From: a virus
Length of the DNA stretch: 64,000 bases
IMG/VR virus record: IMGVR_UViG_3300012953_000019
Location: 1 to 64,000 of that record
Reading direction: 5' to 3' (one strand)
In this document: in pieces, positions 2,321 through 30,974 of the stretch
How positions within the stretch are numbered: position 1 is the stretch's first letter
Layout of the letters: each line of letters starts with the position of its first letter
Notes under the pieces: model-generated
Databases searched by the model: none
Told to the model about the DNA's origin: nothing
What the model saw: the letters and a program-made list of their open reading frames with translations, nothing else
Made by a program: the position numbers and the translations under genes

Positions 2321-2321
2321 A

Positions 2322-6341: not shown

Positions 6342-6370
6342 TTGACATTCCTATAGTTATGATGTATACT
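6342..6370 (+). promoter_or_regulatory. sigma70-type early promoter at the head of the tailoring-enzyme locus
   Basis: TTGACA-17 bp-TATACT. Confidence 0.8.
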
Positions 6371-6372
6371 GT

Positions 6373-6380
6373 TATTTATA
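6373..6380 (-). promoter_or_regulatory. T4-type late promoter for the leftward 6254-1441 operon
   Basis: TATTTATA on + equals TATAAATA on -; intergenic, about 120 nt upstream of the ATG at 6254. Confidence 0.7.
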
Positions 6381-6405: not shown

Positions 6406-6768
6406 ATGCGTATAATCCATACATACAACTCTTCAAAACGTAAGAAGACGCCTCGAGGTAAAGGTTGGCGAGAAAGAGAAGAGGCTCATCGCAAACACCT
6501 AAAAAAGTTAGGCATCGATCCAGATGCTAAACCCAAAAAGAAAAAGTTCGTTGAATACAAGCCAAAAATTTCTGCAAATCACCAGAGATCGATGGAGCAC
6601 CGTGATAAATACAAGAGTAAAGATGATGTGGGTGGTTCATGTCATAAGAAAGAACAAATGGTTTACACAGGTACATTGATTAAGGGTATAGCTACAATGC
6701 ACAAATCTAATGCCGTTCCTGTTATAAGCCAGAAACAAGCAGAAGAGATTTCGCGGATGGGAAAATGA
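6406..6768 (+). CDS. conserved basic phage protein of unknown function
   Basis: GAGAGG SD; the C-terminal YTGTLIKGIATMHKSNAVPV motif resembles proteins I recall from aquatic T4-like phages. Confidence 0.7.
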   Translation: MRIIHTYNSSKRKKTPRGKGWREREEAHRKHLKKLGIDPDAKPKKKKFVEYKPKISANHQRSMEHRDKYKSKDDVGGSCHKKEQMVYTGTLIKGIATMHKSNAVPVISQKQAEEISRMGK

Positions 6769-7496
6769 GAAAAGCTGTACTAAAACAAAACAACTCTTGG
6801 GCACCTATAACTTTACTTGTAGGACAATTAGTTGCACAACTATCATTGATACCAATGATCATGTATGCTCATGCATGGGAATGGATACCATTTACAATTA
6901 TGTATTGTGGTATGATGTTAGGCGTCACAATGGGTTATCATAGATATTGGTCACACAATTCTTTTAAGTGTCCTAAATTTATAGAATATATAATGTTATT
7001 CTTTGCTCATATTATGATGATTGGTCCAGCAATTACTTGGGCAGCCAATCACAGAGAACATCATAGATATGCTGACACAGAAAAAGATCCTCACTCACCA
7101 CACTACAGAGGATGGCTTCTTGCATATTTTGGACAAGTTCTAATTAACATCAACTTTAAATATGCAAGAGATTTACTCAAGAAAAAAATAATGAGAGATC
7201 AAGTAAAATATTATTGGTATGTTATATTCATTTGGGCAGGAATATTATTTGCAATAGACCCACTTGCCTTAATATATGCATGGTTAGCACCAGCAGGTGC
7301 CGCTAAGTTAATTGGCTCTTTTGTCTTTACATATTCACATAGAGGTAAAGAAGCACATAGTGATACTTGGTTAGGTCTCATAACACTCGGTGAAGGATTT
7401 CATAAAGCACACCACGATCATGGCAATAGACAAATTCTATGGCATAGATTTGATATCGGAGGACAGTTGATCAGACTTATTGATAAAACTGCGTAG
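6765..7496 (+). CDS. membrane acyl desaturase (delta-9-like, His-box family)
   Basis: His boxes HRYWSH, HREHH and HKAHH, the D-T-E-K-D-P-H-S-P motif, and transmembrane segments. Confidence 0.9.
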   Translation: MRKAVLKQNNSWAPITLLVGQLVAQLSLIPMIMYAHAWEWIPFTIMYCGMMLGVTMGYHRYWSHNSFKCPKFIEYIMLFFAHIMMIGPAITWAANHREHHRYADTEKDPHSPHYRGWLLAYFGQVLININFKYARDLLKKKIMRDQVKYYWYVIFIWAGILFAIDPLALIYAWLAPAGAAKLIGSFVFTYSHRGKEAHSDTWLGLITLGEGFHKAHHDHGNRQILWHRFDIGGQLIRLIDKTA

Positions 7497-7498
7497 AT

Positions 7499-8197
7499 AT
7501 GAATTTTAAATATGTACCCTTTGTGGCTGATAGATTTGATTATGATTATTGTATAACACATCCGTATCGCAATCAATTAGAAGCACACCCAATTGCAAAT
7601 GAAGATGACATGGCTTTGCTCCATGAGCATCTTACGGACTGGGAAAAAGCTATTATCATTGCAGGAAGTTATTACTTTATTTGGGATAGCTATGATCAGA
7701 AAAGAATAACAGAGCAATCGGACAAACTAATCAGTATTGAAGACTGTGAATTCTCTTCAGATGTCCATGCAAACTCTGCCACCCTTATTAAAGAGTATGT
7801 GGAAACATATCAAGGTACTTTCAGTTTCTTGATGGGTAACAACGACTATAGACCCAAAGCAGATAGCTACTTTAAACACGCACATCAATCCACGGAGATT
7901 GACGGTGAAACATACGAAGATACTTTCACGATTATCTATCCGATACATCTAGAAAATGATGTTATAGAAGAATTCAAAATTTTTTATGTGGAAGAAGAAG
8001 GAATTTACAAGCTATTAAAAGCACCATTAACTTATCCAGAAGGAGAAGTCAAAAGTATAAAATTTCCTAAAAAAGGTGAAGCACTCTTAATACATTTTAA
8101 TTCATGTAAGGGTATTCATTGGGTAGATGGTCTTACAAATAATAACTTTATGGCTCACGCATTTGATTCTGTGATAATGAGGAAAGAACTATGTTGA
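7499..8197 (+). CDS. hypothetical protein, possibly a cupin/2OG-Fe(II)-like fold
   Basis: HAH...(beta strands)...IHWV spacing is suggestive only. Confidence 0.3.
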   Translation: MNFKYVPFVADRFDYDYCITHPYRNQLEAHPIANEDDMALLHEHLTDWEKAIIIAGSYYFIWDSYDQKRITEQSDKLISIEDCEFSSDVHANSATLIKEYVETYQGTFSFLMGNNDYRPKADSYFKHAHQSTEIDGETYEDTFTIIYPIHLENDVIEEFKIFYVEEEGIYKLLKAPLTYPEGEVKSIKFPKKGEALLIHFNSCKGIHWVDGLTNNNFMAHAFDSVIMRKELC

Positions 8198-8892
8198 AGA
8201 AACGAGATTTGCCTGTTGTTGCTCCTATTCCAGGAATACGATTTAACTTGGATAAGATTAAAGAAGAACTTGCTAAGATAGAACATCTATGGGAAGACAT
8301 CTATAAAGCTAATCCCGGTATAACAAAATTACATGATCCATCTTTTGTTGATAATGCATATGCAAACTTAAAAGAGATTCCTTTGATGGTAATGTCGCCA
8401 GAAAATATGGCAAAAGCTGATGACTTTGAACTTGAAGATTTGGGTGCTACTCTTAGAGAAAGAATTCGCAATAAAAAAGCAAAGGGTGATAACTTACCAC
8501 CAACTGCAAATGAGATGTTGTGGGATTATCAGACTGATGCTTGTAAGGGTACTTACTTTGAAGAAGCATTATCAGGACACTTTTCTGCGCCAGTTTGCCG
8601 CGCTAGACTACACTTTCTTGCGCCGGGTATGAGTTTACAACCACATATTGATTATGATCCCTCATATGGTGTTAGAATAGTTTGTCCTATATCAGGTACA
8701 GATGAATGTATTAATCAGTTTTGGGTAAACGGCGAATATAAAGAATATAATTTACCAGCAGATGGTAGAGTTTGGTTCTTGAACACAGGATTTAAACATG
8801 GCGTAGTAAATAATGGTACCGAACCACGTATTGCATTATTGGCAACATTGAAGAGTCAGGAAGATATAGAATGTTTGAAATTAGTATCATAG
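8191..8892 (+). CDS. aspartyl/asparaginyl beta-hydroxylase-like 2OG-Fe(II) oxygenase
   Basis: LQPHIDYD (HxD)...RIVCPI...WFLNTGFKHGVVNNGTEPRIAL (distal H and R). Confidence 0.8.
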   Translation: MLKKRDLPVVAPIPGIRFNLDKIKEELAKIEHLWEDIYKANPGITKLHDPSFVDNAYANLKEIPLMVMSPENMAKADDFELEDLGATLRERIRNKKAKGDNLPPTANEMLWDYQTDACKGTYFEEALSGHFSAPVCRARLHFLAPGMSLQPHIDYDPSYGVRIVCPISGTDECINQFWVNGEYKEYNLPADGRVWFLNTGFKHGVVNNGTEPRIALLATLKSQEDIECLKLVS

Positions 8893-9518
8893 AATATGAT
8901 GGTTCTAAAAAAGTAAGAGAACAGATAGAGAACTTTAGAGAGTTATCTTTTAAAGAAGGTAATGACAGTTTGGCATATGACAAATATGATCCCGACAAAA
9001 CTGGTCAGACATTCTTAAATTATGTTGATGACAAATTGGCTTCATTGAGTGTTATAGAACCAAGTCATTATACGAGTGATCCAGATGTAGCCGCTAGAGG
9101 TTGCAGACTTCACATTGCTACTGAATTTAGACCAGCTTGGTTAGGATTACTTCATGCACCTAAACAAATTATGTGGGCAGAAAAAAACGGCTTTAAGGTA
9201 TTTTATTTTACGCATGATATTCGTAACAGGGCGATCAATGCAATGTATCAGAAGCGAAGATTTGGAGCCGCTGTAACTGAGTTACAAAAACAAATGGAAT
9301 GGATGTGGACTTCAGATTGGTACCAAGATTTGTCTCTTGATACTAGATTGTTGTTTCAAGTTGATGAAAGGTCTGACTTGTTACAATACGTTTACTATTG
9401 GACACTTGAAGATGGTTACGTATGGCAACCACCTAGTAATGTTGTTTGGTATGAACATAATGGTAGAATAAAATCCAGTGTATCAGAAAAGGAAATAATA
9501 AATGCACATAAGCGATAA
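8871..9518 (+). CDS. GNAT-like acyltransferase
   Basis: RGCRLHIATEFRPAWLG resembles GNAT motif A; beta/alpha pattern is compatible. Confidence 0.45.
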   Translation: MFEISIIEYDGSKKVREQIENFRELSFKEGNDSLAYDKYDPDKTGQTFLNYVDDKLASLSVIEPSHYTSDPDVAARGCRLHIATEFRPAWLGLLHAPKQIMWAEKNGFKVFYFTHDIRNRAINAMYQKRRFGAAVTELQKQMEWMWTSDWYQDLSLDTRLLFQVDERSDLLQYVYYWTLEDGYVWQPPSNVVWYEHNGRIKSSVSEKEIINAHKR

Positions 9519-10113
9519 AGTTGTAGTAAGTTGGTTCAACTTTCTCAGAGATAATGTAGATAACCCAGAAGTAACTAAAAGATATTACGAATGCTTTTGG
9601 GAAAGTCAATTAAAGAGTAAACAAATAGTATTAGATTTAATTGATTCTATGGACATATATCAATGTTATATTTTTGGTGGATGGTATGGTTTGTTAGCCC
9701 AGATACTTTCAGATACTAGGCGATCACATCATCCCATAGTATCTGTTGATATAGACCCTAAGTGTGAGATTGTAATTAATCAATACTTTAATCATGATGA
9801 AGGTATTGTTGCTAACACGGGTGATATGGCAACATATAAGTACAAGATTCGTCCTGATCTAGTTATCAATACAAGTACAGAACACGTTGATCAAAAAACT
9901 TATGATGCTTGGTATAATAATATACCATTAGATACTGAGTATATTGTACAAGGTAACAATCTTGTAATACCAGAACATATAAGACTTGCAGATGATATTA
10001 ATCATTTTAAAGAAATAAATCGATGCACTAAAGTTATTGAAAAAGTTGTTACAGACTGTCCTGGACCAAATGGCATATTTCAAAGATATACTATTAAGGG
10101 CGTTAAAGTATGA
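9502..10113 (+). CDS. class I SAM-dependent methyltransferase
   Basis: IFGGWYG glycine loop, VSVDIDP acidic strand, GDM, LVINTSTEH. Confidence 0.75.
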   Translation: MHISDKVVVSWFNFLRDNVDNPEVTKRYYECFWESQLKSKQIVLDLIDSMDIYQCYIFGGWYGLLAQILSDTRRSHHPIVSVDIDPKCEIVINQYFNHDEGIVANTGDMATYKYKIRPDLVINTSTEHVDQKTYDAWYNNIPLDTEYIVQGNNLVIPEHIRLADDINHFKEINRCTKVIEKVVTDCPGPNGIFQRYTIKGVKV

Positions 10114-11438
10114 CCCCAGTGGAATATTATGAAAAGATAAAGAAAGACTATGATAAGATTTCTCCTTCAATGTGTGTATTGAAGTGGGAACACCTAGAGA
10201 TGCATTTGGGTTCAGCACAAAGTCATTCTTGTTTTCATGTTCCAATGAAACATATAAACGAAGATGAAGACTTTCACAACACAGAACAGAAAAAAGAAGT
10301 ACGCAATCAAATGCTTGATGGTGTTAAACCATCTGAATGTTCATATTGTTGGAAAGCAGAAGATGCTGGTTCTTGGTCACCAAGAATAACACTAGCACCT
10401 ATTCATACATTAAAAGATAAAGACATTATAGCAAAGACTGCATCATTACCTAGAAATGCTGATGTATATCCGAAATATCTAGTAATGAGTTTCAATACTA
10501 AATGTCAATTAAAATGTTCTTATTGTGGGACTCAAAGTAGTTCTTCTTGGTACGAAGAAATTAAAAATGATGGTCCATGGGATGTAATATCTGATGAAAG
10601 TTCTCGTGGATATAATTTAAATGGTAGAGAAACCCTATATACAGGTGATGATAACGCTATGACTAAAAAGTTTTGGAAATGGATAAAAGAAGCAGTGATG
10701 CATCTACATACAATTAGACTTACTGGCGGCGAACCTCTGCTAAGTGAGAACACATTTAAACTTGCTAAGTTTATTAGAAATCATCCTAATGGAGAAAATA
10801 TTGAGTTTAATGTAAATAGTAATCTTTGTGTATCTGATAGACGAGTAGAAAGAATTATTGATACAATGAAAGATATGAAACAACCTAAAGTGTATGCTAG
10901 TATAGACAGTTGGGGACCTCAAGCAGAGTATATTAGACATGGATTAAATGTTGATATGTTTGAGCGCAATCTAGAAAAACTAGTAGATGCCAAAATAGAC
11001 GTTGGTATTATGTCTACTTTCAACTTCATGAGTATTCCAAATTACAAAGAATTGCTTGATGTTATTCTTGACTTTAAAGGACTTTCTTGGATTAAAGGAG
11101 ACGCAACTTTCTCTTTAGATACACCACACATGGTTTATCCAAAACATTTATCTGCATTGATTACAGACGATAAACAACTTGACAATCTACGTGAATTGGT
11201 GTATTATATGAGTACTCATGTAGACGATAATGATATTACTAAATTTAACTCGGGCGAGTATGCCAAGTTTGAAAGAGTACTACAGTGGGTAGAAACAAAT
11301 CGTTTTACTGGTGACGAATTGATCAAACATAGAAAAGACTTCAAAGCATTTGTTGATGAACACGACAAAAGAAGAGGTACAAATTTTATTGAGACTTTTC
11401 CTGAATTGAAGTATTTTTACGAGATGTGTAATGGCTGA
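10110..11438 (+). CDS. radical SAM protein with N-terminal SPASM/Twitch-like Cys cluster (paralogue 1)
   Basis: CVLKW...SCFH...ECSYCW; CQLKCSYC; TGGEP; C-terminal DKRRGTNFIETFPEL. Confidence 0.92.
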   Translation: MTPVEYYEKIKKDYDKISPSMCVLKWEHLEMHLGSAQSHSCFHVPMKHINEDEDFHNTEQKKEVRNQMLDGVKPSECSYCWKAEDAGSWSPRITLAPIHTLKDKDIIAKTASLPRNADVYPKYLVMSFNTKCQLKCSYCGTQSSSSWYEEIKNDGPWDVISDESSRGYNLNGRETLYTGDDNAMTKKFWKWIKEAVMHLHTIRLTGGEPLLSENTFKLAKFIRNHPNGENIEFNVNSNLCVSDRRVERIIDTMKDMKQPKVYASIDSWGPQAEYIRHGLNVDMFERNLEKLVDAKIDVGIMSTFNFMSIPNYKELLDVILDFKGLSWIKGDATFSLDTPHMVYPKHLSALITDDKQLDNLRELVYYMSTHVDDNDITKFNSGEYAKFERVLQWVETNRFTGDELIKHRKDFKAFVDEHDKRRGTNFIETFPELKYFYEMCNG

Positions 11439-12816
11439 AAAAGGAACGAATGAATATTGGATAGATGAATTAAAAGAAAAAAGAATTAAGATAAATGATA
11501 TAAGCCCCTCTTTTTGTTCTGCTAAATGGTTACAAACTACTCTGATGTTACAGAATGGTTATAATCACTCATGTCACCATCCTTCACCCCATAAAATTCC
11601 CGTAGAGGAAGTTTTGGCAAATCCTGCCGCCTTGCATAATAGTCAATATAAGAAAACTCAAAGAGATAAAATGCTCTGTGGTGATAGACCTAAAGAGTGT
11701 GACTATTGTTGGAAGATCGAAGACTTAGACAAAGAATACTTTTCTGATAGACATTATAAAACTGCCGATTGGTGGGCATGGGATAAAATAGATGAGATAG
11801 CAAATAGTGATCCTTATGATGATGTATATCCTACTTATCTAGAAGTATCATTTAGTAATGCTTGTAATTTTGCCTGTGCATATTGCTCACCTGAAATATC
11901 ATCTACTTGGATGCAAGATATTCAGAAAGACGGAATATATCCAGTTAAGTTTGGTTCACATGATTTGAATTATTTAAAAGAAGTTGGTAAGTTTCCATTC
12001 AAGAATAGTGAACCTAACCCATATGTTGATGCTTTTTGGAAATGGTTCCCCGATGCATTCAAGCATCTAAAAGTATTTCGCATAACTGGTGGCGAACCTA
12101 CAATGTCAAAAGATTTTTGGCGAACTGTTGATTATATTGTAGAACACCATCATGAAAATCCAGAACTTAAAATAGGAATCAATAGTAACTTAGGAACAGA
12201 CCCGCGTCTGATTGAAAGACTTATTGCGTCTGTTATAAGACTGGAATCGCATGGTATTGAAGTTGAGATATTCACAAGTGCAGAAAGTACTGGCAACAAA
12301 GCAGAATATGCCAGAGACGGTATTGTATATGATGAATGGATAGAAAACATAGAACGTATGTTGACAGAAACCAACTGTCGAGTTGTTATAATGACAACGG
12401 TAAATATACTATCAATATCTACAATGCAAGATTTCGTTCAAGACATAATGGACTTACGTATTAAGTTTAATCAAAACTTGGCACATAATAGAATACCTTT
12501 GAGTGTAAACTACTTACGTTATCCGCCACATTTACAATGTACTTTATTGTCTTCTGTTTATCGTGAAACAATGGCAAACAAACTAGAAGTATTTTGTGAA
12601 GGTTGGTTGAAGTATGACTCGCCAGATAAATTTGCCAGACTCTATCTAGAGGAGTTTGATCAGATAAAACGATTATGTGACTACCTGAGAACGGAGCCAG
12701 TTGCTGATAAATACAGAGAAGACTTTGCAAACTTTATACGTGAATATGATCGGCGTAGAGGAAAGAATTTTGAACAAACTTTTCCCGAATTGATTACAGA
12801 TATGGAGAAATGGTAA
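11431..12816 (+). CDS. radical SAM protein with N-terminal SPASM/Twitch-like Cys cluster (paralogue 2)
   Basis: FCSAKW...SCHHP...ECDYCW; CNFACAYC; TGGEP; DRRRGKNFEQTFPEL. Confidence 0.92.
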   Translation: MAEKGTNEYWIDELKEKRIKINDISPSFCSAKWLQTTLMLQNGYNHSCHHPSPHKIPVEEVLANPAALHNSQYKKTQRDKMLCGDRPKECDYCWKIEDLDKEYFSDRHYKTADWWAWDKIDEIANSDPYDDVYPTYLEVSFSNACNFACAYCSPEISSTWMQDIQKDGIYPVKFGSHDLNYLKEVGKFPFKNSEPNPYVDAFWKWFPDAFKHLKVFRITGGEPTMSKDFWRTVDYIVEHHHENPELKIGINSNLGTDPRLIERLIASVIRLESHGIEVEIFTSAESTGNKAEYARDGIVYDEWIENIERMLTETNCRVVIMTTVNILSISTMQDFVQDIMDLRIKFNQNLAHNRIPLSVNYLRYPPHLQCTLLSSVYRETMANKLEVFCEGWLKYDSPDKFARLYLEEFDQIKRLCDYLRTEPVADKYREDFANFIREYDRRRGKNFEQTFPELITDMEKW

Positions 12817-13043
12817 TGGCAGTAAAATATATTCATGTTAATATGCATAAAATTCGTGCCAATAGAAAGCACGGAACAAATGAACCCGTCTTAACTGTAA
12901 AAGAAGGAAGAAAAAATACTTACGGACATAGCGTAAAGATACATGGTCCTAGTGAGGTTATATATGGTGGTAATGATAAGCCATTATTGCCATGTGGTGC
13001 TAGAGTTGTTATTAAAACAGAAGCGGATGTGGACATTGACTAA
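12816..13043 (+). CDS. small conserved phage protein (75 aa)
   Basis: TAATG overlap and GGAGA SD favour the ATG at 12816. IHVN..KI..N.K.G..EPVLTVK...N.Y...V.I.GP...Y...KPL.CGARV pattern. Confidence 0.7.
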   Translation: MAVKYIHVNMHKIRANRKHGTNEPVLTVKEGRKNTYGHSVKIHGPSEVIYGGNDKPLLPCGARVVIKTEADVDID

Positions 13044-14541
13044 AGATAATGATTTAATTAAATACCGTAAAGATATTCTTGATACAAAATCTAAAAGTTT
13101 TTGTGGTGCAAAATGGTATAATGCTACGACTTGGCTAGGCAGTGGTACTACTGCATCTTGCCATCACCCGCCCGCACATAAAATTCCATTAGAAGAGATA
13201 ACAGTAGATCCATCTGCTATCCATAATACAAAGCACAAGAAAGCCATGCGTAAAATGATGCAACGTGGCGAAAGACCTAGAGAGTGTGAGTATTGTTGGA
13301 AAGTTGAAGACATGGAAACTGATGCTGTTAGTGACCGTGTATACAAGTCAATAATCTATACTGAAGATGACTTGAAAAAAGCACATGAAATGGATTACAA
13401 CGAAAGTGTTGATTTAAAAACATTTGAAATCTCTTTTGATCGTACTTGTCAACTGGCTTGTTCTTATTGTAACTCAAGTTTTAGTACTACTTGGGCAAAA
13501 GATATAACCAAGAAAGGTCCTTATCAAAATTTAGTATCTGATGGTGCTGGTGCATTTCAACATGATGGTGCGTGGGCAGAACCATATGGTAAAAGAGAAG
13601 AGAACCCATATGTAACTGCATTTTGGGAATGGTGGAATGATGGCTTATCTAAAAGTCTAGAAGAACTGCGTGTTACTGGTGGTGAGCCTTTAATGTCTGA
13701 TCAAGTTTGGAAACTGTTTGATTGGTTCGGCGAAAACAAAACAGATATGAGATTTGCAATCAATTCAAACTTGATGGCAAAAGATTCGCTTATTGATGAA
13801 ATGATTAAGAAGACTCAGAAGGTAGATCAGTTTCATCTTTATACTAGTTGTGAAGCGACTGGATTACAAGCAGATTATATTCGTGACGGACTACATTATG
13901 ACACTTGGAAAAACAATGTCTATAAAATATTGACTCATGGTAAACTTAGTGGTTGTAATATTATGATGACCATTAACAGTTTGTGTTTGTTTAGTATTAC
14001 TGATTTCCTCGATGATGTATATGATATGAAAATCCACACAGGAATGAAAGCACCTGTTGTTAGTTTAAACTTGTTACGTTTTCCTAGTTTTCAGTCGCCA
14101 CTTGCTTTACCAGATCATATTAAAGATCATTGTAGAAAGCAACTACAAGATTGGTGGGAAGAAAAGAAAGATTTAAAATTGTGGCATGAATTTGAGAAAG
14201 CTAGTATAGAACGTCTTATTGACTATCTTGTTACTGTTGACGCACCACATAGACGTACAAGTGATAAGATGACATTGTGGAGAGACTTTAAAACTTTCTA
14301 CGCTCAATATGATGAAAGAAGAGGTTTGTCATTATCTGTATTTCCTAAAATACTTACAGACTGGGTAGAAACTATTCCTACTACAGAAACTATTCCATTA
14401 AAAGAAATGATTGACGGAGACAGTACACGCCAATATGCTGATGATCCAGACTTAAAGAAAATTGCAGATGAGGAAGGTTGGGTTCTAGAACCAGATAGTA
14501 AAAACATTGATAAACCTTTGGCATCATATGACGAAGAATGA
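13027..14541 (+). CDS. radical SAM protein with N-terminal SPASM/Twitch-like Cys cluster (paralogue 3); start at 13027 ATG or 13036 TTG
   Basis: FCGAKW...SCHHP...ECEYCW; CQLACSYC; TGGEP. The track start at 12943 overlaps the upstream gene too far. Confidence 0.9.
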   Translation: MWTLTKDNDLIKYRKDILDTKSKSFCGAKWYNATTWLGSGTTASCHHPPAHKIPLEEITVDPSAIHNTKHKKAMRKMMQRGERPRECEYCWKVEDMETDAVSDRVYKSIIYTEDDLKKAHEMDYNESVDLKTFEISFDRTCQLACSYCNSSFSTTWAKDITKKGPYQNLVSDGAGAFQHDGAWAEPYGKREENPYVTAFWEWWNDGLSKSLEELRVTGGEPLMSDQVWKLFDWFGENKTDMRFAINSNLMAKDSLIDEMIKKTQKVDQFHLYTSCEATGLQADYIRDGLHYDTWKNNVYKILTHGKLSGCNIMMTINSLCLFSITDFLDDVYDMKIHTGMKAPVVSLNLLRFPSFQSPLALPDHIKDHCRKQLQDWWEEKKDLKLWHEFEKASIERLIDYLVTVDAPHRRTSDKMTLWRDFKTFYAQYDERRGLSLSVFPKILTDWVETIPTTETIPLKEMIDGDSTRQYADDPDLKKIADEEGWVLEPDSKNIDKPLASYDEE

Positions 14542-21632: not shown

Positions 21633-22774
21633 GAATTGGGTTTATTGGTTTTGGTAAATTGGGTCAGCCATGCGGAGAAGTAATTTCAGAAAAAGGACAT
21701 GATGTAGTTGCATATGATGTAGCCGATATAGACACCACTGTAGAAATGAGAGATTCTATAGAAGAGACTGTTAAAGATAGAAATATTGTATTCATTGCTG
21801 TACCTACACCACACGATCCAGCATATGATGGTAGCGCACCAACATATCATTTACCACCAAAAGACTTTTCATATGACATTGTAATTGATGTTATAAAAGA
21901 AGCAAACAAACACATGAATAAAGATCAATTATTGGTTCTTATAAGCACTGTGTTGCCGGGTACTGTACGTAGAGAGTTTGTACCATTAGTTACTAACACT
22001 AGGTTTGTATATAATCCATATTTGATTGCTATGGGTACAGTGGCGTGGGATATGGTAAATCCAGAAATGGTAATGATAGGAACAGAAACGGGAGAGACAA
22101 CAAAAGAAGCTGGTGAACTTATTTACTTTTATGCGACTATTATGGAAAATGATCCTCGCTATGTTGTCGGTACTTGGGATGAGTGTGAATGTATTAAAGT
22201 ATTTTACAATACGTTTATTAGTGCCAAGATCGGTCTTGTAAATATGATACAAGATGTTGCAGAAACACAGGGCAATATTAATGTAGACGTTGTTACTGAT
22301 GCACTCAAAGATAGTACTCAAAGAATTATGGGTCCGTCTTACATGAAAGCTGGAATGGGAGATGGTGGTGCTTGTCACCCAAGAGATAATATTGCACTAA
22401 GATATATGGCAAATGATTTAAATTTGAACTACGATCTTTTTGCAGAAATAATGAAAGCAAGAGATATGCAAGCATCGAATATGGCATCGTCTATACTTAA
22501 TTTTGGAGATAAGATTTACTTTACTTCAGACAGTTACAAACCAGGTGTTTCATATACTGCGGGTAGTTACAGTCTATTAGTACAAGAGTATGTGAAAGAA
22601 CTGGAAGGTGAAATAGTAAATGATATTACAGAAGCAGATGTCATTGTTCTTGTACACCCAGAAGAAACTACAGCAGAAGAACTTGGCAAATACCAAGTTA
22701 TATTTGATCCGTGGAGAAAATTTAAAAGCGATACAAACGAAGTAGTACATTATGGTAATACGAGAATGCAATGA
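21629..22774 (+). CDS. ugd: UDP-glucose/GDP-mannose 6-dehydrogenase family protein
   Basis: GFIGFGKLG Rossmann motif, FIAVPTP, STVLPGT, KVFYNTF, catalytic GDGGACHPRD. Confidence 0.9.
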   Translation: MRIGFIGFGKLGQPCGEVISEKGHDVVAYDVADIDTTVEMRDSIEETVKDRNIVFIAVPTPHDPAYDGSAPTYHLPPKDFSYDIVIDVIKEANKHMNKDQLLVLISTVLPGTVRREFVPLVTNTRFVYNPYLIAMGTVAWDMVNPEMVMIGTETGETTKEAGELIYFYATIMENDPRYVVGTWDECECIKVFYNTFISAKIGLVNMIQDVAETQGNINVDVVTDALKDSTQRIMGPSYMKAGMGDGGACHPRDNIALRYMANDLNLNYDLFAEIMKARDMQASNMASSILNFGDKIYFTSDSYKPGVSYTAGSYSLLVQEYVKELEGEIVNDITEADVIVLVHPEETTAEELGKYQVIFDPWRKFKSDTNEVVHYGNTRMQ

Positions 22775-23541
22775 CTCTTGAGCAAAAAATAAAAGACTAT
22801 TGGAATGCTCAACCCTGTAATATCAATCATAGTAAAGAACCTTTCGGTACTGTAGAATACTTTGACAGTGTAACCACTAAACGCTACAAAGCTGAACCAC
22901 ATATATTAGATTTTGCGGGGTTTCATCTGTGGCGAGGCAAACGTGTTTTAGAAGTAGGATGTGGTATTGGAACTGATGCAGAGCAGTTTATGCGACACGG
23001 AGCAGAATATACTGGCATTGATATCAGTGACGAAAGTTTGCGTATTTGTGAACAACGGATTAATGTACAAGGATTAAAGGGTAAGTTTATTAATCGAAGT
23101 GCTACTGAAAATTTGGAAACCCTTGGCAAGTTTGATTTAGTATATAGCTATGGTGTATTACATCATTATCCAAACATAGAACAATCTATACAAAACATTC
23201 ATGATGTGATCAATCCTAATGGTGAATTTAGATTTATGGTGTATGCTAAGGACAGTTGGAAATATTCTATGATTCGTAAAGGATTGGATCAGTTTGAAGC
23301 CCAAGCAAATTGTCCATATGCTGAAGCATTCACGAAGAATGAAATAGAACTCTTATTGAAAGATGACTCTTGGAAAATTGAAAGGTTGCGTCAAGCACAT
23401 TGTTTCATGTATAATGTAGAGAAGTACAAAAAAGGAATTTTTGAATTTGAACCATGGTTTGAATCAATGTCTGAAGTTATGCGTGAAGCAGTAAGAGAGT
23501 ACCTAGGTTGGCACCTTCTTGTTAAAACACGTAGGATTTAA
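22771..23541 (+). CDS. class I SAM-dependent methyltransferase
   Basis: VLEVGCGIG, TGIDIS, FDLVYSYGVLHH. Confidence 0.9.
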   Translation: MTLEQKIKDYWNAQPCNINHSKEPFGTVEYFDSVTTKRYKAEPHILDFAGFHLWRGKRVLEVGCGIGTDAEQFMRHGAEYTGIDISDESLRICEQRINVQGLKGKFINRSATENLETLGKFDLVYSYGVLHHYPNIEQSIQNIHDVINPNGEFRFMVYAKDSWKYSMIRKGLDQFEAQANCPYAEAFTKNEIELLLKDDSWKIERLRQAHCFMYNVEKYKKGIFEFEPWFESMSEVMREAVREYLGWHLLVKTRRI

Positions 23542-23542
23542 A

Positions 23543-24793
23543 ATGAAAAAAATAATTTTTTGGTATGATAAACAGGATAGAGTTAATTCATGGATTCCCC
23601 AATATGATGATTGGTTAAAAGCATCACCTGCCTTTGATGAAGCCTCTTATGATTATTGGCACAAATGTTTGGGTATAGTAGATTACGTTGAGCCTTTAAG
23701 TGAACATCTTGATATAGAAACTCGTTTGTTATCAGATTGGGAAGAAAATGATTACTTGAACGTCTATGTACTTTCTATACAGCAACTTATTATCTCTAAC
23801 TATAACGGTATGGGAACTATCATTGATACTATACCTTATAATACACAGCAACTTTTAAGAGACAAAAAATTAAAGTTGTTGATACTAAATCATAGAGAAG
23901 GATGGCCAGCAGAGAAGTTTTTACCTTCAATACAAGTACATCTTGATTATAACAATATGCAAGATATTGATGCTTATGTTTTTACTGCTAACTTAAAAGT
24001 AGACGAGAAAATTTGGGCAAGAGATGGTATAAAAAGAATATTTAATGTATCAGAGTTTGAAAACATTTCTTTACGACAAAATGAAACAAACGCAGAACAT
24101 AAAAATCAAGAAAAACAAAATGATTATATTGCTTTAAATAGGATTGTTAGAACACATCGAATGGCATTATATAGTGAACTTGATAGACTACAACTTCTTG
24201 ACAAAGGTGCTTTTAGTTTTTTAGGAGAATCTTACTTAAATAAATATCCCAGTGATATTGTAGAAGCAGATAAAGAAGATTATGTTGAAATTAATAAGTT
24301 GTTAAATGGTGCTCAGTTAGATTACTTTGATGAATTTGAAATGAAAAAGCGCACAGTTGATTCGGCATATTTCTTTTCAAATGATCCTGTTAATTTATAC
24401 AACACATCATATATTAACTTAATCACAGAAACTCATTTTATGGAAAACTCTGGGTTTTTAACAGAGAAAATTTTTAAGTCTTTTGTTCACTATAAACCAT
24501 TTTTATTAATGGGTGAACATGGTAGTTTATCTAGATTGAGAGATATGGGATATCATACCTTTCCTGAATTGTTTGACGAGTCTTATGATAACATCTTAAA
24601 TCCAGCAGAACGTTTTAATGCGGTAATAAATCAACTCAGAAACTGGTGCGCTAAATCAAAAGACGAAAAAGATGAGTTGATTAACAAAGTCGAAAACAAA
24701 GTTATTTACAATCATGATTTATTTTTTAGCGAAAAAAATATAGATGATAAAGTAAAAGAAAACAAATCAATGTTTGAACAAATGGAGAAATAA
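23543..24793 (+). CDS. putative GT-B-fold glycosyltransferase (GT10-like TEK motif), paralogue B
   Basis: YIALNRIVRTHR; SYINLITET...LTEKIFKS...GYHTFPELFDESYD. Confidence 0.5.
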   Translation: MKKIIFWYDKQDRVNSWIPQYDDWLKASPAFDEASYDYWHKCLGIVDYVEPLSEHLDIETRLLSDWEENDYLNVYVLSIQQLIISNYNGMGTIIDTIPYNTQQLLRDKKLKLLILNHREGWPAEKFLPSIQVHLDYNNMQDIDAYVFTANLKVDEKIWARDGIKRIFNVSEFENISLRQNETNAEHKNQEKQNDYIALNRIVRTHRMALYSELDRLQLLDKGAFSFLGESYLNKYPSDIVEADKEDYVEINKLLNGAQLDYFDEFEMKKRTVDSAYFFSNDPVNLYNTSYINLITETHFMENSGFLTEKIFKSFVHYKPFLLMGEHGSLSRLRDMGYHTFPELFDESYDNILNPAERFNAVINQLRNWCAKSKDEKDELINKVENKVIYNHDLFFSEKNIDDKVKENKSMFEQMEK

Positions 24794-24794
24794 A

Positions 24795-24908
24795 ATGAAA
24801 GCAATCTGGGACAAAATTAGAGCGCCTTATTTGAGATGGAAACTCAAAAGAGAATATAGAAAGCGTATTAAAGAACTACAAGAAAGAGATCCTTTTATAT
24901 ATGACTAA
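24795..24908 (+). CDS. 37-aa basic peptide MKAIWDKIRAPYLRWKLKREYRKRIKELQERDPFIYD (not in the ORF track)
   Basis: Translated by hand; GGAGA SD upstream; fills the gap and overlaps the carbamoyltransferase start. Confidence 0.65.
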   Translation: MKAIWDKIRAPYLRWKLKREYRKRIKELQERDPFIYD

Positions 24909-26325
24909 TAGAGTTGAATGGGGTATTAGTGCAGGTACGCATGATGCTTCTATTACTGTAATGCGTGGTGATGAAATATTATTTGCATCTCATTCTGAAA
25001 GATACAGTAGATTAAAGAACGACAAAGATTTGGATGATAGTCTTATAACGTCGGCACTCAAGTGGGGTAAGCCGGATATTGTTTACTGGTACGAAAATCC
25101 ATTATTAAAATGGACAAGAAAGAAATGGGCAAAACAACCTAGGGCGTGGTTAAGTCCTACAAAATATTTGAAACAATATGGTATTACTGCTCCTGTAAAA
25201 TGGGGCAATCATCATAGAAGTCATATGGCAGCCGGATATTATACTAGACCATTTAGTGATTGTGCTACTCTTGTTATAGATGCTATAGGTGAGTGGACTA
25301 CTACAAGTATTTGGAATAATGAACAGCTAGTTTGGTCTGATAGTTATCCTAAATCTTTTGGACTATTCTATTCTGCATTTACAAGTAGAATAGGACTAAA
25401 GCCAAACGAAGACGAATATATTCTTATGGGTATGGCAGCCTATGGTAATCCTATGAGATTTCATTCAGATGTATTAGAAATATGGTATTCTGATATTAAC
25501 TTACACAAAGGTCTTTCTTGGTGGATGCCAGAACTTAAAGAAGAAGATTATTTCGATGTAGCCGCGGCTGTACAAGCTGTTTATGAATCTCAGTTTAAGA
25601 TGATGCTACAAAAAGTAAAAAGAATTACAAATCAAAATAAATTGGTGTTTATGGGTGGGTGCGCTTTAAACTGTCTCGCAAATAGGTTTATACCAGATTA
25701 CTTTAAAGATCACTGGATAATGCCTAATCCAGGAGATGCTGGATCATCACTGGGTGCTATTCTTGCACATAAAAAGAAAGTTGTGCCATTTACTGTTTAT
25801 ACAGGTCACACAATATATGGTAAATACCCAGTAATAAATCTACTCAAAGAATTAAAAGAAACTGGTATTGTTGGTGTTGCACACGGTAAAGCAGAGTTTG
25901 GTCCCAGAGCATTGGGTAATAGAAGTTTACTTGCTGACCCAAGAGGCAAAGAAATGCAAGATAAAGTAAATAAGATTAAACAGCGCCAAGAGTTTAGACC
26001 ATTTGCGCCTATAGTGAAACAAGAAAATGCAAGCAGATGTTTTGATGTAGATACTAGTTTTCATTCTCCTTATATGCAACACGTGGTTAAATGTAAAGAT
26101 CCTGATAAGTACCCCGCAATTGTGCATAAAGATGGAACTAGTAGAGTGCAGACTGTCACTAAAAAATCTCATAGAGGATTATATGATCTATTGACAAGGT
26201 GGGAAAGAGATACTGGTTGCCCATTATTATTGAATACAAGTTTAAATATAAAAGGTATGCCTATTGTAAACTCAAGATCAGATGCAATAGATTTTGAAAC
26301 TGAATATGATGTACGAGTTTTTTAA
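24901..26325 (+). CDS. O-carbamoyltransferase (NodU/CmcH/TobZ family)
   Basis: HDAS, HHRSH, DAIGE, GEFGPRALGNRS-like EFGPRALGNRSLLADP, RPFAP, VHKDGTSRVQTV, LLNTSLN. Confidence 0.93.
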   Translation: MTNRVEWGISAGTHDASITVMRGDEILFASHSERYSRLKNDKDLDDSLITSALKWGKPDIVYWYENPLLKWTRKKWAKQPRAWLSPTKYLKQYGITAPVKWGNHHRSHMAAGYYTRPFSDCATLVIDAIGEWTTTSIWNNEQLVWSDSYPKSFGLFYSAFTSRIGLKPNEDEYILMGMAAYGNPMRFHSDVLEIWYSDINLHKGLSWWMPELKEEDYFDVAAAVQAVYESQFKMMLQKVKRITNQNKLVFMGGCALNCLANRFIPDYFKDHWIMPNPGDAGSSLGAILAHKKKVVPFTVYTGHTIYGKYPVINLLKELKETGIVGVAHGKAEFGPRALGNRSLLADPRGKEMQDKVNKIKQRQEFRPFAPIVKQENASRCFDVDTSFHSPYMQHVVKCKDPDKYPAIVHKDGTSRVQTVTKKSHRGLYDLLTRWERDTGCPLLLNTSLNIKGMPIVNSRSDAIDFETEYDVRVF

Positions 26326-27026
26326 TGAAAATATTAGTTGCGGGTGACAGTTGGACTCATGGCTGGAATGTAGAACATTCTTGGTGGCATTATTTAGATG
26401 AAACTGATATAACTTCTGTTGCCATGTCCGGTGATAGTAACTCAATTATTTCTCAAGAAGTACGTGCGGCTGTTAGACAGTCACACTATGATCTTGTAAT
26501 TGTAGGATGGTCAAGTATGCTACGAGTTCAAGATAGTCGAGGTGATCCCGCAGTTTGGTGGGCAAAAAATATTGACGAGGATGGTTCTAAAGAATTAGAT
26601 GATTTATATCGTAACAACTCTTTGGATTATTTTCAAAATAAAATGTATGAACACATTCAACAAGTAGAATCTCTACAAACTAAAGTACTACACTTTTCTG
26701 TTTTTGGCGACAATCTTGGTAATGTCAAACATAAAATGAATATGTCTTTTTTAGAATATCTTGCGAATGACAACGGTTATAAATTCATATATAATGTTCC
26801 AACTTTTGAATTTGGTTTACTATCACATGAAAGAGAAGAAATATCAAAGATGTTGTTTAGTACAAAAGAAGATGTATATCCAACTTGGGAACTTGCTCTT
26901 TTTGAAAGAGACAAAATACAATTAGATTTTCCTAAAACCAATAACTTTCAACACTGTGGTCATCCTAGTGAGAAAGGACATAAATTGTGGGGCGCAGAAA
27001 TTAACGATGCAATTCGATCATTATAA
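26325..27026 (+). CDS. SGNH/GDSL-fold protein
   Basis: LVAGDSWTHG, SGDSN, IVGWSS..R, GHPSEKGH. Confidence 0.7.
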   Translation: MKILVAGDSWTHGWNVEHSWWHYLDETDITSVAMSGDSNSIISQEVRAAVRQSHYDLVIVGWSSMLRVQDSRGDPAVWWAKNIDEDGSKELDDLYRNNSLDYFQNKMYEHIQQVESLQTKVLHFSVFGDNLGNVKHKMNMSFLEYLANDNGYKFIYNVPTFEFGLLSHEREEISKMLFSTKEDVYPTWELALFERDKIQLDFPKTNNFQHCGHPSEKGHKLWGAEINDAIRSL

Positions 27027-28206
27027 TTTTGTATCATGTATATACAACGATGTTGAAACTATATTTGTTCACAATAAAGAAACTTTGGGTAATCATTATC
27101 TAGATGATAGACCAGTAGAAGAACAATATCACTGGCTTGTAGATAATGCTTTTAACTTTCAGAGTGACACTATGATAGTGTACATTAAAGGTTACAAGTA
27201 TAGCAATGGTCATTCCACTATTGTCAATCACATTAAAAAATGTTCTCCTAAAAAATTAATTGTATTTAATGATGATGCACATACACCATGGCAAGAACTT
27301 GATCTTGTTATAGATGAATTAAAAGGTAAGACTCATGAGGGTCTTCTTATTTCATACTTGATTGCAGAATCTTGTATAGAAGATTATCAGATATACGACT
27401 GTGAATATGGGGCTTTAAGCTACTACCACAGCAATATAGAAGCCGATAGGTACCATTACTATAATATTTGGACACATTCATATGCACCACACTCTCATAA
27501 TTTACTTAGAGAGTATAAACCCACTAAAGATATGCTTTACAAACTGTGTTGTTGTAGTAAAAAGCCTGATGTACATAGAGCGTTGGCAGCCATCTGTTTG
27601 GTAGATAGAGAAGATGTCAAACTAACTTATTATGAAAAACATAGATTTCAAGAACTAGAGAGAATGATATCTTTTACGAATACTGATAAAGTTTTAAATC
27701 CTCCATTACCTACATATAAGACTTTACCAGAAAAATATAAAACTCTTATTCAGAATAACTATAAGAAGTTTTTAGAATCAGATTTAACTTGGGATGTAGG
27801 TAATATTAGTGATATAGCAGGACATGAACAAATTAAAACTATTTCTCTTTCTAGAGACTCGTTTCTTACAGTTGTTCCAGAAACTTTATGGGATACTAGT
27901 ACTAGATTTTGGTCAGAAAAAACTTTAAAGCCTATGTTAATGAAAAGACCATTTGTTCTTTTAGCTCCAGCAAAAACATTGGACAAAGTTAGACGATTGG
28001 GATTTCAGACTTTTGGTAATTATTGGGACGAGTCTTATGATGAAGAATTAGATCATGGTAAAAGATTTGCTATGGTAATGGACATAGCAAACGATATATT
28101 AAAAAAAGATTGGGACGAATTATTGTTCTTGTTAAATGATATGGAAGGAATACTAGAACATAATAGAAAACAAGTTTGGAATTTATCTAATAGGAAATTA
28201 ATTTAA
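27007..28206 (+). CDS. putative GT-B-fold glycosyltransferase (GT10-like SEK motif), paralogue C
   Basis: CCSKKPDVHR; SFLTVVPET...WSEKTLKP...GFQTFGNYWDESYD. Confidence 0.5.
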   Translation: MQFDHYNFVSCIYNDVETIFVHNKETLGNHYLDDRPVEEQYHWLVDNAFNFQSDTMIVYIKGYKYSNGHSTIVNHIKKCSPKKLIVFNDDAHTPWQELDLVIDELKGKTHEGLLISYLIAESCIEDYQIYDCEYGALSYYHSNIEADRYHYYNIWTHSYAPHSHNLLREYKPTKDMLYKLCCCSKKPDVHRALAAICLVDREDVKLTYYEKHRFQELERMISFTNTDKVLNPPLPTYKTLPEKYKTLIQNNYKKFLESDLTWDVGNISDIAGHEQIKTISLSRDSFLTVVPETLWDTSTRFWSEKTLKPMLMKRPFVLLAPAKTLDKVRRLGFQTFGNYWDESYDEELDHGKRFAMVMDIANDILKKDWDELLFLLNDMEGILEHNRKQVWNLSNRKLI

Positions 28207-29093
28207 TGGCTGAAATGTTACATATGAAGACTAGAGTTGTAGACATAGAGACTGTCCATGCTTATGGATGTTCTATGGCAGCTGGTCACGAAATAACACA
28301 TCCAGCAACTTTGGATAAAAATCATAGAATTATTCAGACTATTGAAGGTCCAGAATTAGAAAAAATAATCAGAGCCGACAAAAAAGAATCTTGGGTTGCT
28401 ACTGTATGTAATAATCTAGGAGTAGATCATATTAATAATGCTAGGTATGGATTATCAAATGAACACAGTGCTTGGATTCTACTTGAAGATATAATGAAAG
28501 GAAGAATAAAGAGAAATCATGCCGTATTCTTTTGTATTACTTTGTTGACCCGAGTGTTGTATTTCGATCCTTTAGATGGTAAACCACTATCAAAACAGTT
28601 ACACGCATGGGCTGAAGATTCACCGGAAATTTTAGAACATTATAATGATTATAAGATGTTATATAATTATTTTCTTTTGATGCAACAGATAATGCTTATG
28701 TGTAAGTCTGTTGGTGCACCACTTTATTTCATACCCAGCTTTGAACATCCTACTTGGAATCTAATGTCAGACTATAGACCTTATAACCCAGATGTTCTTA
28801 AAGTGAAGAAAAAGATAAAAAACGACTGGCAGTTTAGAAAAATTATCGATCTTATTGCTAGAGAAATGAATGGAATGTCTTTGTTGGTTCCAGGACCAAT
28901 ACGAAATTCTTCATTTTTGTGGTATACAGAAAGTTTGAATCCTAATCTAGACCATAAAGATTTTCACGCATTAAATAAAAAAGGTATTAAATTAAGAGAA
29001 AAAACTCATTCTCCAGGTCGCCATCCTAATAAATACTCACATGACAAGTATGCAGAAGAAATAACAAAGTTGTTAAAACCAGAAAAAAGCTAA
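28206..29093 (+). CDS. SGNH/GDSL-fold protein
   Basis: HAYGCSMAAG, NNARYGLSN, RHPNKYSH. Confidence 0.6.
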   Translation: MAEMLHMKTRVVDIETVHAYGCSMAAGHEITHPATLDKNHRIIQTIEGPELEKIIRADKKESWVATVCNNLGVDHINNARYGLSNEHSAWILLEDIMKGRIKRNHAVFFCITLLTRVLYFDPLDGKPLSKQLHAWAEDSPEILEHYNDYKMLYNYFLLMQQIMLMCKSVGAPLYFIPSFEHPTWNLMSDYRPYNPDVLKVKKKIKNDWQFRKIIDLIAREMNGMSLLVPGPIRNSSFLWYTESLNPNLDHKDFHALNKKGIKLREKTHSPGRHPNKYSHDKYAEEITKLLKPEKS

Positions 29094-29410: not shown

Positions 29411-29441
29411 CTTATTCATTAACCTAGTAGGATTACAACAT

Positions 29442-30283: not shown

Positions 30284-30289
30284 AGTCTT

Positions 30290-30952: not shown

Positions 30953-30974
30953 TTTAAAAGTGCTAAATAGTACT

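Follow-up and report, generated by a model that had tools for sequence, protein, structure and literature searches.

The stretch of DNA analysed here, called the window throughout, comprises the first 64,000 nucleotides (64 kb) of the 116,286-bp virus record IMGVR_UViG_3300012953_000019 of IMG/VR, a record judged to be about 70% complete. Between positions 6406 and 29093 the window carries a gene island of about 23 kb, which makes up about a fifth of the known 116 kb of the phage and consists of 23 plus-strand open reading frames (ORFs) and one 37-aa micro-ORF. Seven radical S-adenosylmethionine (SAM) proteins, three glycosyltransferase (GT)-like proteins of GT-B type, a nucleoside diphosphate (NDP)-sugar dehydrogenase, and an O-carbamoyltransferase are among its products. 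As the best explanation we infer that the island is one functionally linked, early-transcribed set of soluble enzymes that makes and heavily edits a sugar or a short sugar chain in the cytoplasm of the host. Because gp32, gp59, and PhoH are encoded in the window (Pfam) and its gp32 is 55-58% identical to the gp32 of cyanomyophages and of Pelagibacter phage HTVC008M, the phage is, by its sequence, an uncultured marine T4-like myophage. Nearly identical DNA also turns up in nine metagenome studies of marine or estuarine origin, dated 2013 to 2025, beyond the likely source study.

A sequence-only reading of the window had described a co-oriented, mostly overlapping row of genes at these positions, with no intrinsic terminator that could be spotted. 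Both points hold, with the addition of the micro-ORF that it had missed. The ORFs are mostly joined by overlaps of 1-22 nt or gaps of 1-2 nt, no competing long minus-strand ORF occurs across 6406-29093, and the GC skew is positive along the whole island. Terminator-like matches within the block are weak and all lie inside reading frames, and on the plus strand a strong hairpin with a T-run does not appear until 34746-34770, 3' of gp32. The sole sizeable intergenic gap of the island, 24794-24900, is filled by the 37-aa ORF. For the radical SAM gene g10, the ORF opens at 12943, and alignment places the start most likely at about 13027, giving 504 aa as in relatives; the interval 12810-13043 is a separate gene. 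A megablast search of the whole block against cultured phages returned no match. The features are given below, where NF033640 is the profile N_Twi_rSAM and L015 is a relative, 84% identical, with a complete 165-kb genome.

6342-6370 (+): candidate sigma70-like promoter ahead of the block, TTGACA-17-TATACT, 11/12 consensus matches.
6406-6768 (+): g01, basic 120-aa protein of PHROG 27048, function unknown, missing in L015, occurring at the left end of some islands, and unlikely to be a pathway enzyme.
6765-7496 (+): g02, membrane fatty-acid desaturase (FA_desaturase, PF00487, 55.8 bits) with three hydrophobic segments, which opens the accessory block g02-g05.
7499-8197 (+): g03, acidic 232-aa protein with no Pfam, NCBIfam, or PHROG hit, 94% identical in L015.
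8191-8892 (+): Asp/Asn beta-hydroxylase-like oxygenase (Asp_Arg_Hydrox, PF05118, 25.0 bits against a cut-off of 22.6).
8871-9518 (+): g05, weakly GNAT-like; a profile of 10 homologues (A8) matches several GNAT structures in the PDB, best E 0.001.
9502-10113 (+): g06, virus-restricted methyltransferase-like protein; profile A9 matches methyltransferase 3dtn at E 0.0018, and Atlas gives virus-only clusters with a weak Methyltransf_31 lead.
10110-11438 (+): g07, N_Twi radical SAM (NF033640, 294.9 bits), orthogroup patchy among relatives.
11431-12816 (+): g08, N_Twi radical SAM (305.6 bits), conserved orthogroup, reciprocal best hits at 33-92% identity across lineages.
12810-13043 (+): g09, 77-aa protein inside the radical SAM array, PHROG 8676, function unknown, absent from L015.
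13027-14541 (+): g10, N_Twi radical SAM (291.1 bits), the best conserved paralogue, orthologues at 43-92% identity.
14507-15832 (+): g11, N_Twi radical SAM (347.3 bits), conserved orthogroup, SPASM match at residues 18-93, N-terminal to the radical SAM core.
15814-16380 (+): g12, accessory gene with a sulfotransferase-like lead from Atlas only (Stf0 on 12% of one neighbouring cluster), absent from L015 and present in 2/30 of the radical SAM-anchored loci described below.
16373-17566 (+): g13, N_Twi radical SAM (348.5 bits), conserved orthogroup and anchor of the locus search, model pLDDT 88.
17559-18776 (+): g14, N_Twi radical SAM (315.5 bits), whose orthologue in one lineage bears a DPFIY tail.
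18773-20038 (+): g15, N_Twi radical SAM (213.2 bits), rare orthogroup.
20025-21632 (+): g16, GT-B-fold glycosyltransferase-like paralogue of g19 (32% over 242 aa), sharing TEK...FDESYD motifs.
21629-22774 (+): divergent nucleotide-sugar dehydrogenase (UDPG_MGDP_dh; PF03721 and PF00984 above cut-offs; TIGR03026 138.1 bits, cut-off 189.8).
22771-23541 (+): g18, accessory class I SAM methyltransferase (Methyltransf_12/25/11, 65-68 bits), absent from L015.
23543-24793 (+): g19, GT-B-fold glycosyltransferase-like protein, modelled (AF2 pLDDT 86; VIA Z 14.7 and 13.6 to known glycosyltransferases).
24795-24908 (+): 37-aa micro-ORF ending RDPFIYD, preceded by a GGAG-like site and overlapping the start of the carbamoyltransferase gene with its stop.
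24901-26325 (+): NodU/NolO-type O-carbamoyltransferase (PF16861, Carbam_trans_C, 183.4 bits; PF02543, Carbam_trans_N, 116.2 bits).
26325-27026 (+): g21, SGNH-like, N-terminal GDSW; the family profile A7 weakly matches GDSL lipase.
26956-28206 (+): g22, GT-B-fold glycosyltransferase-like paralogue of g16 and g19, sharing WDESYD, 74% identical in L015.
28206-29093 (+): g23, SGNH-like with a weak GDSL match, of a family found in 23/29 carbamoyltransferase-anchored loci.
29102-30206 (+): right border, g24 (102 aa, conserved) followed by PhoH (PF02562, 165 bits).
31833-32720 (+): NAD-dependent sugar epimerase/dehydratase (PF01370, 114.9 bits), a possible detached member; epimerases lie within the island in loci L011 and L019.

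The enzyme list drawn up earlier from the letters stands in part. Pfam and NCBIfam matches back the desaturase, the seven radical SAM enzymes, the NDP-sugar dehydrogenase, one methyltransferase, and the carbamoyltransferase, while the Asp/Asn-hydroxylase-like oxygenase is borderline and the labels GNAT, second methyltransferase, SGNH, and sulfotransferase are weakly supported. The three proteins called GT-like, at 20025, 23519, and 26956, are indeed mutual paralogues, one of which was modelled and adopts a GT-B fold, and the epimerase and the B12-type radical SAM protein (34789-36291) reported nearby are both present. The enzyme mix is of a sugar-tailoring kind.

All seven radical SAM proteins of the island pass the NF033640 cut-off of 170 bits along the full model with 213-348 bits, and they are the only matches above that cut-off in the 116-kb record. 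Each of them keeps the CxxxCxxC motif (C137/C141/C144), a GGEP motif, and four N-terminal cysteines (C6/C25/C82/C85). In three of the seven, Pfam SPASM matches fall at residues 6-93, ahead of the Radical_SAM match, and this position, together with the four retained cysteines, places an auxiliary-cluster domain before the radical SAM core. The seven proteins are only 20-35% identical to one another; many loci nevertheless contain reciprocal best hits of g08, g10, g11, and g13, with identities of about 24-92%, and the orthologues of these four stand in the same order where gene order was compared (L015 and L011). The array is therefore made of ancient distinct orthogroups and not of recent copies, and by these sequence comparisons the seven proteins are ancient paralogues with separate conserved roles, as expected of enzymes that catalyze successive steps.

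The family is large, since a search with g13 matched 1,034 clusters at 50% identity with E<=1e-30. The g13 model was compared with known structures using Foldseek, and CteB, anSME, SuiB, viperin, BlsE, QueE, and MoaA were about equally similar. Because these neighbours are the generic SPASM/twitch group, the fold gives no clue to the substrate, and both sequence and fold searches place the N_Twi proteins only in that general group. The BtrN-type radical dehydrogenation to which the sequence-only reading had compared them is at most a candidate reaction. A search of the PDB with the g14 sequence gave nothing significant, and the match of the N-terminal Cys domain to the twitch region of BtrN is weak and non-significant. 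No paper on the N_Twi_rSAM family was found in a literature search, the name and type of the NF033640 model carry no reaction, and ten longer N_Twi fusion proteins contain, by Pfam, only tandem radical SAM domains and TPR repeats. The small gene g09 keeps its place between the g08 and g10 orthologues in loci L030 and L032, where g13 is about 54% identical. It was considered as a precursor peptide and dropped, since it belongs to a PHROG family and is absent from L015 and from most arrays.

The earlier reading had also held that independent assortment of the genes in relatives would speak against a common system. For the comparison, 80 IMG/VR loci anchored on the g13-type radical SAM gene and 80 anchored on the carbamoyltransferase were collected, one hidden Markov model was built per window family, and all ORFs of the loci were scored. 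After anchors were collapsed at 90% identity and loci of at least 18 kb were kept, 30 radical SAM-anchored and 29 carbamoyltransferase-anchored loci remained. The radical SAM-anchored loci hold a median of six N_Twi genes, accompanied by GT-B proteins (23/30), NDP-sugar dehydrogenase (21/30), and carbamoyltransferase, g06, and SGNH-like genes (18/30 each); the desaturase block g02-g05 occurs in 11/30. N_Twi genes are found in 24/29 of the carbamoyltransferase-anchored loci, SGNH-like genes in 23/29, and PhoH in 24/29. The genes follow a stereotyped order, [D-3-H-5]-m-R(4-7)-G(1-3)-U-p-C-s/S-g24-PhoH, that is, the optional desaturase block, the methyltransferase-like gene, the radical SAM array, GT-B, NDP-sugar dehydrogenase, micro-ORF, carbamoyltransferase, SGNH-like genes, g24, and PhoH. 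In this order g06 usually heads the radical SAM array, and g24 and PhoH come after the island in most carbamoyltransferase-anchored loci. An ordered core thus recurs across diverged phages, and independent assortment is not what the loci show. In L015 the order of the island is kept without g01, g09, g12, and g18, part of g07 is replaced, and a different GT paralogue is carried, so the core is stable, with the tailoring genes as cassettes around it.

Parts of the core also occur together outside this lineage. Jumbo-phage contigs carry at least six N_Twi genes together with g06, and a 231-kb contig has at least ten radical SAM genes, an epimerase, and a GT-B protein. A 101-kb phage (L020) combines a dehydrogenase, a 2-oxoglutarate oxygenase, an aminotransferase, two radical SAM proteins, two GT-B proteins, a micro-ORF, and a carbamoyltransferase. 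In the cultured Ralstonia jumbo phage RsoM2USA the order is SGNH-radical SAM-SGNH-micro-ORF-SGNH-carbamoyltransferase; the genes are annotated as hypothetical and go unmentioned in the paper on that phage. Metagenome-assembled genomes of Bdellovibrionota (G006, G007, G008, and G009) have from 6 to about 20 N_Twi genes each. One of them, the Bdellovibrionales genome G007, holds on contig C275 (L188-L190) a chromosomal cluster of about 45 kb between RmuC and seryl-tRNA synthetase, with at least ten N_Twi genes, a carbamoyltransferase, a GT-B protein of the same family, an SGNH-like protein, a B12-binding radical SAM protein, and three QueC-like PP-loop proteins. There are also phages whose islands at the phoH-proximal position are rich in GT and epimerase genes and have few or no radical SAM genes.

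These comparisons bear on the possibility that the phoH-proximal site is a hypervariable dumping ground for unrelated auxiliary genes that share no product. Content at the site does vary widely among phages, the desaturase block and the genes g01, g09, g12, and g18 are present in some loci and missing in others, and the idea of stuffer DNA was raised in a 2010 paper (PMC3037559). Against such a mosaic stand the conserved order of the core genes and the overlap-based translational coupling throughout the block. The N_Twi radical SAM protein, the carbamoyltransferase, and the SGNH-like protein moreover occur together in unrelated replicons without synteny (RsoM2USA and the Bdellovibrionales chromosome), and the GT-B family is fused to sugar dehydrogenase and epimerase domains. 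We regard a chance assembly of this kind as improbable.

The three paralogues g16, g19, and g22 share TEK and FDESYD-type motifs, the TEK motif in their C-terminal domain presumably recalling the GT10 signature. None of them matches a curated GT family in Pfam or NCBIfam, no Pfam family was found in 32 homologues, and the g19 sequence found nothing significant in the PDB. The model of g19 is, along its full length, a GT-B fold of two Rossmann domains. Its top structural match is T4 beta-glucosyltransferase 1c3j (308 residues aligned, root-mean-square deviation (rmsd) 4.4), followed by the Helicobacter pylori alpha1,3-fucosyltransferase 2nzx (270 aligned, rmsd 3.9) and then by TarM, SdgB, and Gtf3/GtfC-type protein O-glycosyltransferases. 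In P0202 a member of the family is joined to an epimerase domain, and in A0A6J5TB28 to a UDP-glucose/GDP-mannose dehydrogenase domain; these fusions suggest, indirectly, that the GT-B family works with nucleotide sugars. The NDP-sugar dehydrogenase matches the N-terminal and central Pfam domains and has no match to the C-terminal UDP-binding domain; as its score lies below the TIGR03026 cut-off, it is not a member of that subfamily and must be regarded as divergent, with an uncertain substrate. The carbamoyltransferase reaches 137.6 bits against NF041651, the NodU equivalog, whose cut-off is 1000, and by sequence it is a member of the NodU/CmcH/TobZ family and not a NodU orthologue. An HH..H motif and other residues are invariant in it across 25 homologues. 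It has at least 542 relatives in IMG/VR, and it is 26-31% identical to cyanophage 'Nol-like' genes and 47% identical to the RsoM2USA version. The SGNH-like proteins g21 and g23 match GDSL lipase at E 0.029, with a conserved G-x-S and a late His.

The match of g19 to T4 beta-glucosyltransferase (Z 14.7; Foldseek E 1.5e-6), in a phage that is itself T4-like, could be taken to mean that the GT-B enzymes glycosylate modified bases as the alpha- and beta-glucosyltransferases of T4 do, and that the other enzymes edit the attached sugar; DNA had been listed among the targets in the sequence-only reading. The fucosyltransferase match is statistically tied with it (Z 13.6), and the identity of g19 to beta-glucosyltransferase is only 9-12%. 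The thymidylate-synthase/hydroxymethylase family (PF00303) is absent from the 116-kb record (G000, 70% complete) and from two complete 165-kb island-bearing relatives (G001 and G002). T4-style base glycosylation is unlikely because this family is absent, and we consider hypermodification of DNA a very remote prospect.

A hydropathy scan of the island proteins found membrane-like segments in the desaturase only, and the soluble character of every other enzyme supports a cytoplasmic pathway. It also bears on whether the island remodels the host envelope, with modified sugar nucleotides and lipid changes feeding the lipopolysaccharide (LPS), capsule, or S-layer machinery of the host and, for example, blocking superinfection. 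Such a role would fit cyanomyophage clusters at the same position, which have long been read as LPS genes (PMC3037559), the apparently early transcription of the block, the desaturase and the Asp/Asn-hydroxylase-like oxygenase that open it, and a fast gene turnover between close relatives, L015 having exchanged or lost g07, g09, g12, g18, and g19. The GT-B enzymes, however, are soluble, the same scan detected no membrane-bound initiating phosphoglycosyltransferase, flippase, polymerase, or ligase-like protein, Pfam likewise matched no flippase, polymerase, or initiating transferase family, and the same core is found in phages of very different hosts (Ralstonia, marine, freshwater) with differing surface glycans. 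A glycolipid or lipo-oligosaccharide built on a lipid carrier, as had been proposed, is accordingly not encoded here, and remodelling of the host surface appears unlikely.

The timing of expression can be suggested from the DNA. A sigma70-like promoter lies ahead of the island and no T4 late box (TATAAATA) occurs on the plus strand between 6406 and 33575, which suggests that the genes are expressed at an early or middle stage; overall, there is no enrichment of promoter-like sites. Directly upstream lies a divergent late operon on the minus strand (1441-6254), with a late box at 6373-6380 (-), that encodes low-complexity proteins with Sec signals. Asn, Thr, and Ser account for 195 of the 373 residues (52%) of the product of 5133-6254, and Ser, Asp, Glu, Gly, and Asn abound in the product of 2777-5152. 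Operon and island also lie side by side in G001 and G002, two complete relatives with a g13 of only 50% identity. By position and composition, these exported N/T/S-rich proteins are possible candidate acceptors for glycosylation. On its other side the island is bordered by the phoH/gp59/gp32 region. Further genes lie beyond it: a Cas4-like PD-(D/E)XK nuclease at 30269-30952 (+), a permuted (two-piece) tmRNA at 30947-31286 (+) with the tag ANDEVFALAA (ARAGORN) between the Cas4-like and cell-wall hydrolase genes, and the B12-binding radical SAM protein at 34789-36291 (+), which has weak PhpK- and ladderane-type matches. The Cas4-like gene and the B12-binding radical SAM gene match the gene mix of a T4-like TARA genome (PMC5332604).

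The statement that the locus has no visible substrate gene needs a caveat, since a conserved micro-ORF had been overlooked. Across 59 distinct tails, homologues of the micro-protein close with an unchanging DPFIY and a single charged residue, and a basic stretch comes before these; the N-terminus is variable (30 to 83 aa). Among 60 distinct 21-nt tails, every synonymous codon is in use at D, P, F, I, and Y, and selection must therefore act on the peptide itself. The start of the next gene always lies inside the last codons or the stop of the micro-ORF, and this next gene is a carbamoyltransferase, an SGNH-like gene, or a GT-B fusion; judged from this arrangement, the micro-ORF is translationally coupled to it. 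One lineage has the final twelve residues (KRIRKQDPFIYE) attached to the C-terminus of a g14-type radical SAM protein (L080, 11202-12464 (+); the same gene in L039, L040, L041, L044, L070, and L143), and 3' of this fusion lies a GT-B fusion protein of 883-907 aa whose start overlaps the stop of the tail. RsoM2USA carries an unannotated 36-aa ORF ending RKQDPFIYK between RsoM2USA_200 and _201, at 13892-14002 (-) of locus L185, which corresponds to about 125891-126001 of MG752970.1. A relaxed search for variant tails in radical SAM arrays that lack the peptide gave one extra match only. By adjacency the peptide goes with the carbamoyltransferase more than with the radical SAM genes, but the fusion ties it to the latter as well. 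Because many arrays lack the motif, the DPFIY peptide is not a universal radical SAM substrate; its possible roles are those of the substrate or scaffold that the locus had seemed to lack, of a tail for docking, and of a regulatory peptide or translational sensor.

SPASM/twitch radical SAM enzymes are known to act on Tyr-containing C-terminal cores, MftC on MftA and PqqE on PqqA. With this precedent the product could be anchored on a peptide, the DPFIY micro-protein being a ribosomal scaffold or core that is modified by the radical SAM enzymes, decorated by the carbamoyltransferase and SGNH-like proteins, and glycosylated by GT-B enzymes where these are present, to give a cofactor-like product or one like a ribosomally synthesized and post-translationally modified peptide (RiPP). 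The invariant tail behind a variable N-terminus, the selection on the peptide, the fusion to an N_Twi protein, and the existence of minimal islands without GT-B would all suit such a product. An N_Twi gene lies nearby in 19/19 non-identical peptide-bearing carbamoyltransferase loci with flanks of at least 8 kb, although this does not differ significantly from the 7/9 of the comparison set. No such peptide lies within reach in L011, L019, L009/L010, L054, L085, or the Bdellovibrionales cluster, and no RiPP recognition element (RRE) domain, leader peptidase, or exporter was found among the island proteins with Pfam and NCBIfam, a search that did not extend to remote RRE folds. Seven conserved radical SAM enzymes would also be many for a core of five residues. 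We hold a peptide-anchored product to be rather unlikely. Doubtful to a like degree is a related role of the micro-protein as a ribosomal handle, either a scaffold whose C-terminal Tyr would bear the radical-edited, carbamoylated, and in some cases glycosylated product or a nascent-chain sensor that would gate translation of the next enzyme. HypE, the acceptor of the carbamoyl group of HypF, offers together with MftA and PqqA an analogy for such a peptide handle. If the handle were real, the island would stand for a widespread, hitherto undescribed kind of radical SAM chemistry that phages carry and that is linked to a peptide, and not for plain glycan tailoring.

We give about an even chance to the preferred reading, in which the island is a cytoplasmic sugar-tailoring pathway with radical editing. 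The NDP-sugar dehydrogenase (21629-22774) would oxidise a nucleotide sugar, which the epimerase (31833-32720) might epimerise. Each of the seven N_Twi proteins would then make one different radical edit at an unactivated carbon, the candidate reactions being epimerisation, deoxygenation, oxidation, decarboxylation, and C-C bond formation. The three GT-B proteins would move the sugars onto an acceptor, and the carbamoyltransferase, methyltransferases, SGNH-like proteins, and sulfotransferase-like protein would decorate free hydroxyls. The least secure part of this scheme is the acceptor, for which a protein or peptide made during infection is favoured over a host glycan linked to a lipid carrier and over DNA. 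The desaturase-hydroxylase-GNAT sub-block (6765-9518) would be an accessory module confined to marine T4-like lineages.

Several points weigh against this pathway. Much of the co-occurrence stems from related T4-like phages, so that shared descent accounts for part of it. The N_Twi_rSAM family is without a known reaction, and its structural neighbours include the peptide enzymes CteB, anSME, SuiB, and SkfB as well as viperin, BlsE, and MoaA, which act on nucleotides or sugars (Foldseek). Many islands (L132, L135, and RsoM2USA among them) have radical SAM genes, SGNH-like genes, the micro-ORF, and the carbamoyltransferase with no GT-B or sugar dehydrogenase within 10 kb. In the Bdellovibrionales cluster, QueC-like PP-loop enzymes and other radical SAM proteins are added, and a single GT-B protein is the sole sugar-linked gene among those scanned. 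The score of the dehydrogenase is too low for its NCBIfam subfamily, and no C-terminal UDP-binding domain was detected in it. Finally, the early timing is suggested by consensus matches only.

Solving the product would assign a function to the whole N_Twi_rSAM family, answer the 15-year-old question of whether the cyanomyophage 'LPS' clusters do anything, and reveal the benefit of costly Fe-S chemistry to marine phages. The mini-version in RsoM2USA (a radical SAM protein, SGNH-like proteins, the micro-ORF, and the carbamoyltransferase) makes the system bench-testable in a cultured phage.

Comparison with characterized enzymes shows what is shared and what is not. All seven radical SAM proteins of the island are members of NF033640 along the full model, and membership says what the proteins are and not what they do. 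With BtrN, BlsE, viperin, and MoaA they share a partial TIM-barrel radical SAM core and an auxiliary-cluster domain, and three of these, BlsE, viperin, and MoaA, were also matched by Foldseek; the auxiliary domain of the island proteins, however, stands before the core and not after it, they show no sequence-level membership, and the peptide enzymes CteB, anSME, and SuiB score at least as well against the island model as the sugar and nucleotide enzymes do. Both Pfam carbamoyltransferase domains are well above their cut-offs, as in NodU, NolO, and TobZ, whereas the enzyme lies far below the NodU equivalog cut-off and the island type is usually preceded by a coupled micro-ORF. To our knowledge, a coupled upstream micro-ORF has not been described for the NodU/NolO/TobZ family. 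The GT-B proteins share the full-length fold of GT10 fucosyltransferases and of the GT63 T4 beta-glucosyltransferase, at 9-12% identity and with no Pfam GT family.

The closest known systems are found in phages. The sequence-only reading knew of no characterised phage pathway of such make-up, and none was found in the literature, although there are two precedents. Big cyanomyophages (P-SSM2, S-SM2, and S-SSM7) carry extensive 'LPS gene clusters' close to hli03 or phoH, which Sullivan et al. 2010 described while leaving undecided whether they function (PMC3037559). Nishimura et al. 2017 noted a T4-like marine (TARA) genome with 12 radical SAM genes and cas4, which was discussed solely for Fe-S supply (PMC5332604). 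In Synechococcus phage Bellamy, a Nol-like carbamoyltransferase lies within an annotated cluster of NDP-heptose, GT, methyltransferase, and UDP-glucose dehydrogenase genes. The window shares with Bellamy and the cyanomyophage clusters the T4-like marine phage background, the position beside phoH, and co-oriented genes for a nucleotide-sugar dehydrogenase, an epimerase, glycosyltransferases, methyltransferases, and a Nol-like carbamoyltransferase. In contrast, the Bellamy annotation lists no radical SAM protein, and none of the phage records matching g13 or g19 is that of Bellamy; the GT-B 'FDESYD' family matches no cultured phage record, and the carbamoyltransferase differs from its cyanophage counterparts to the extent noted above. 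The island is therefore best filed as a radical SAM-rich variant of the phoH-proximal 'LPS gene clusters' of cyanomyophages.

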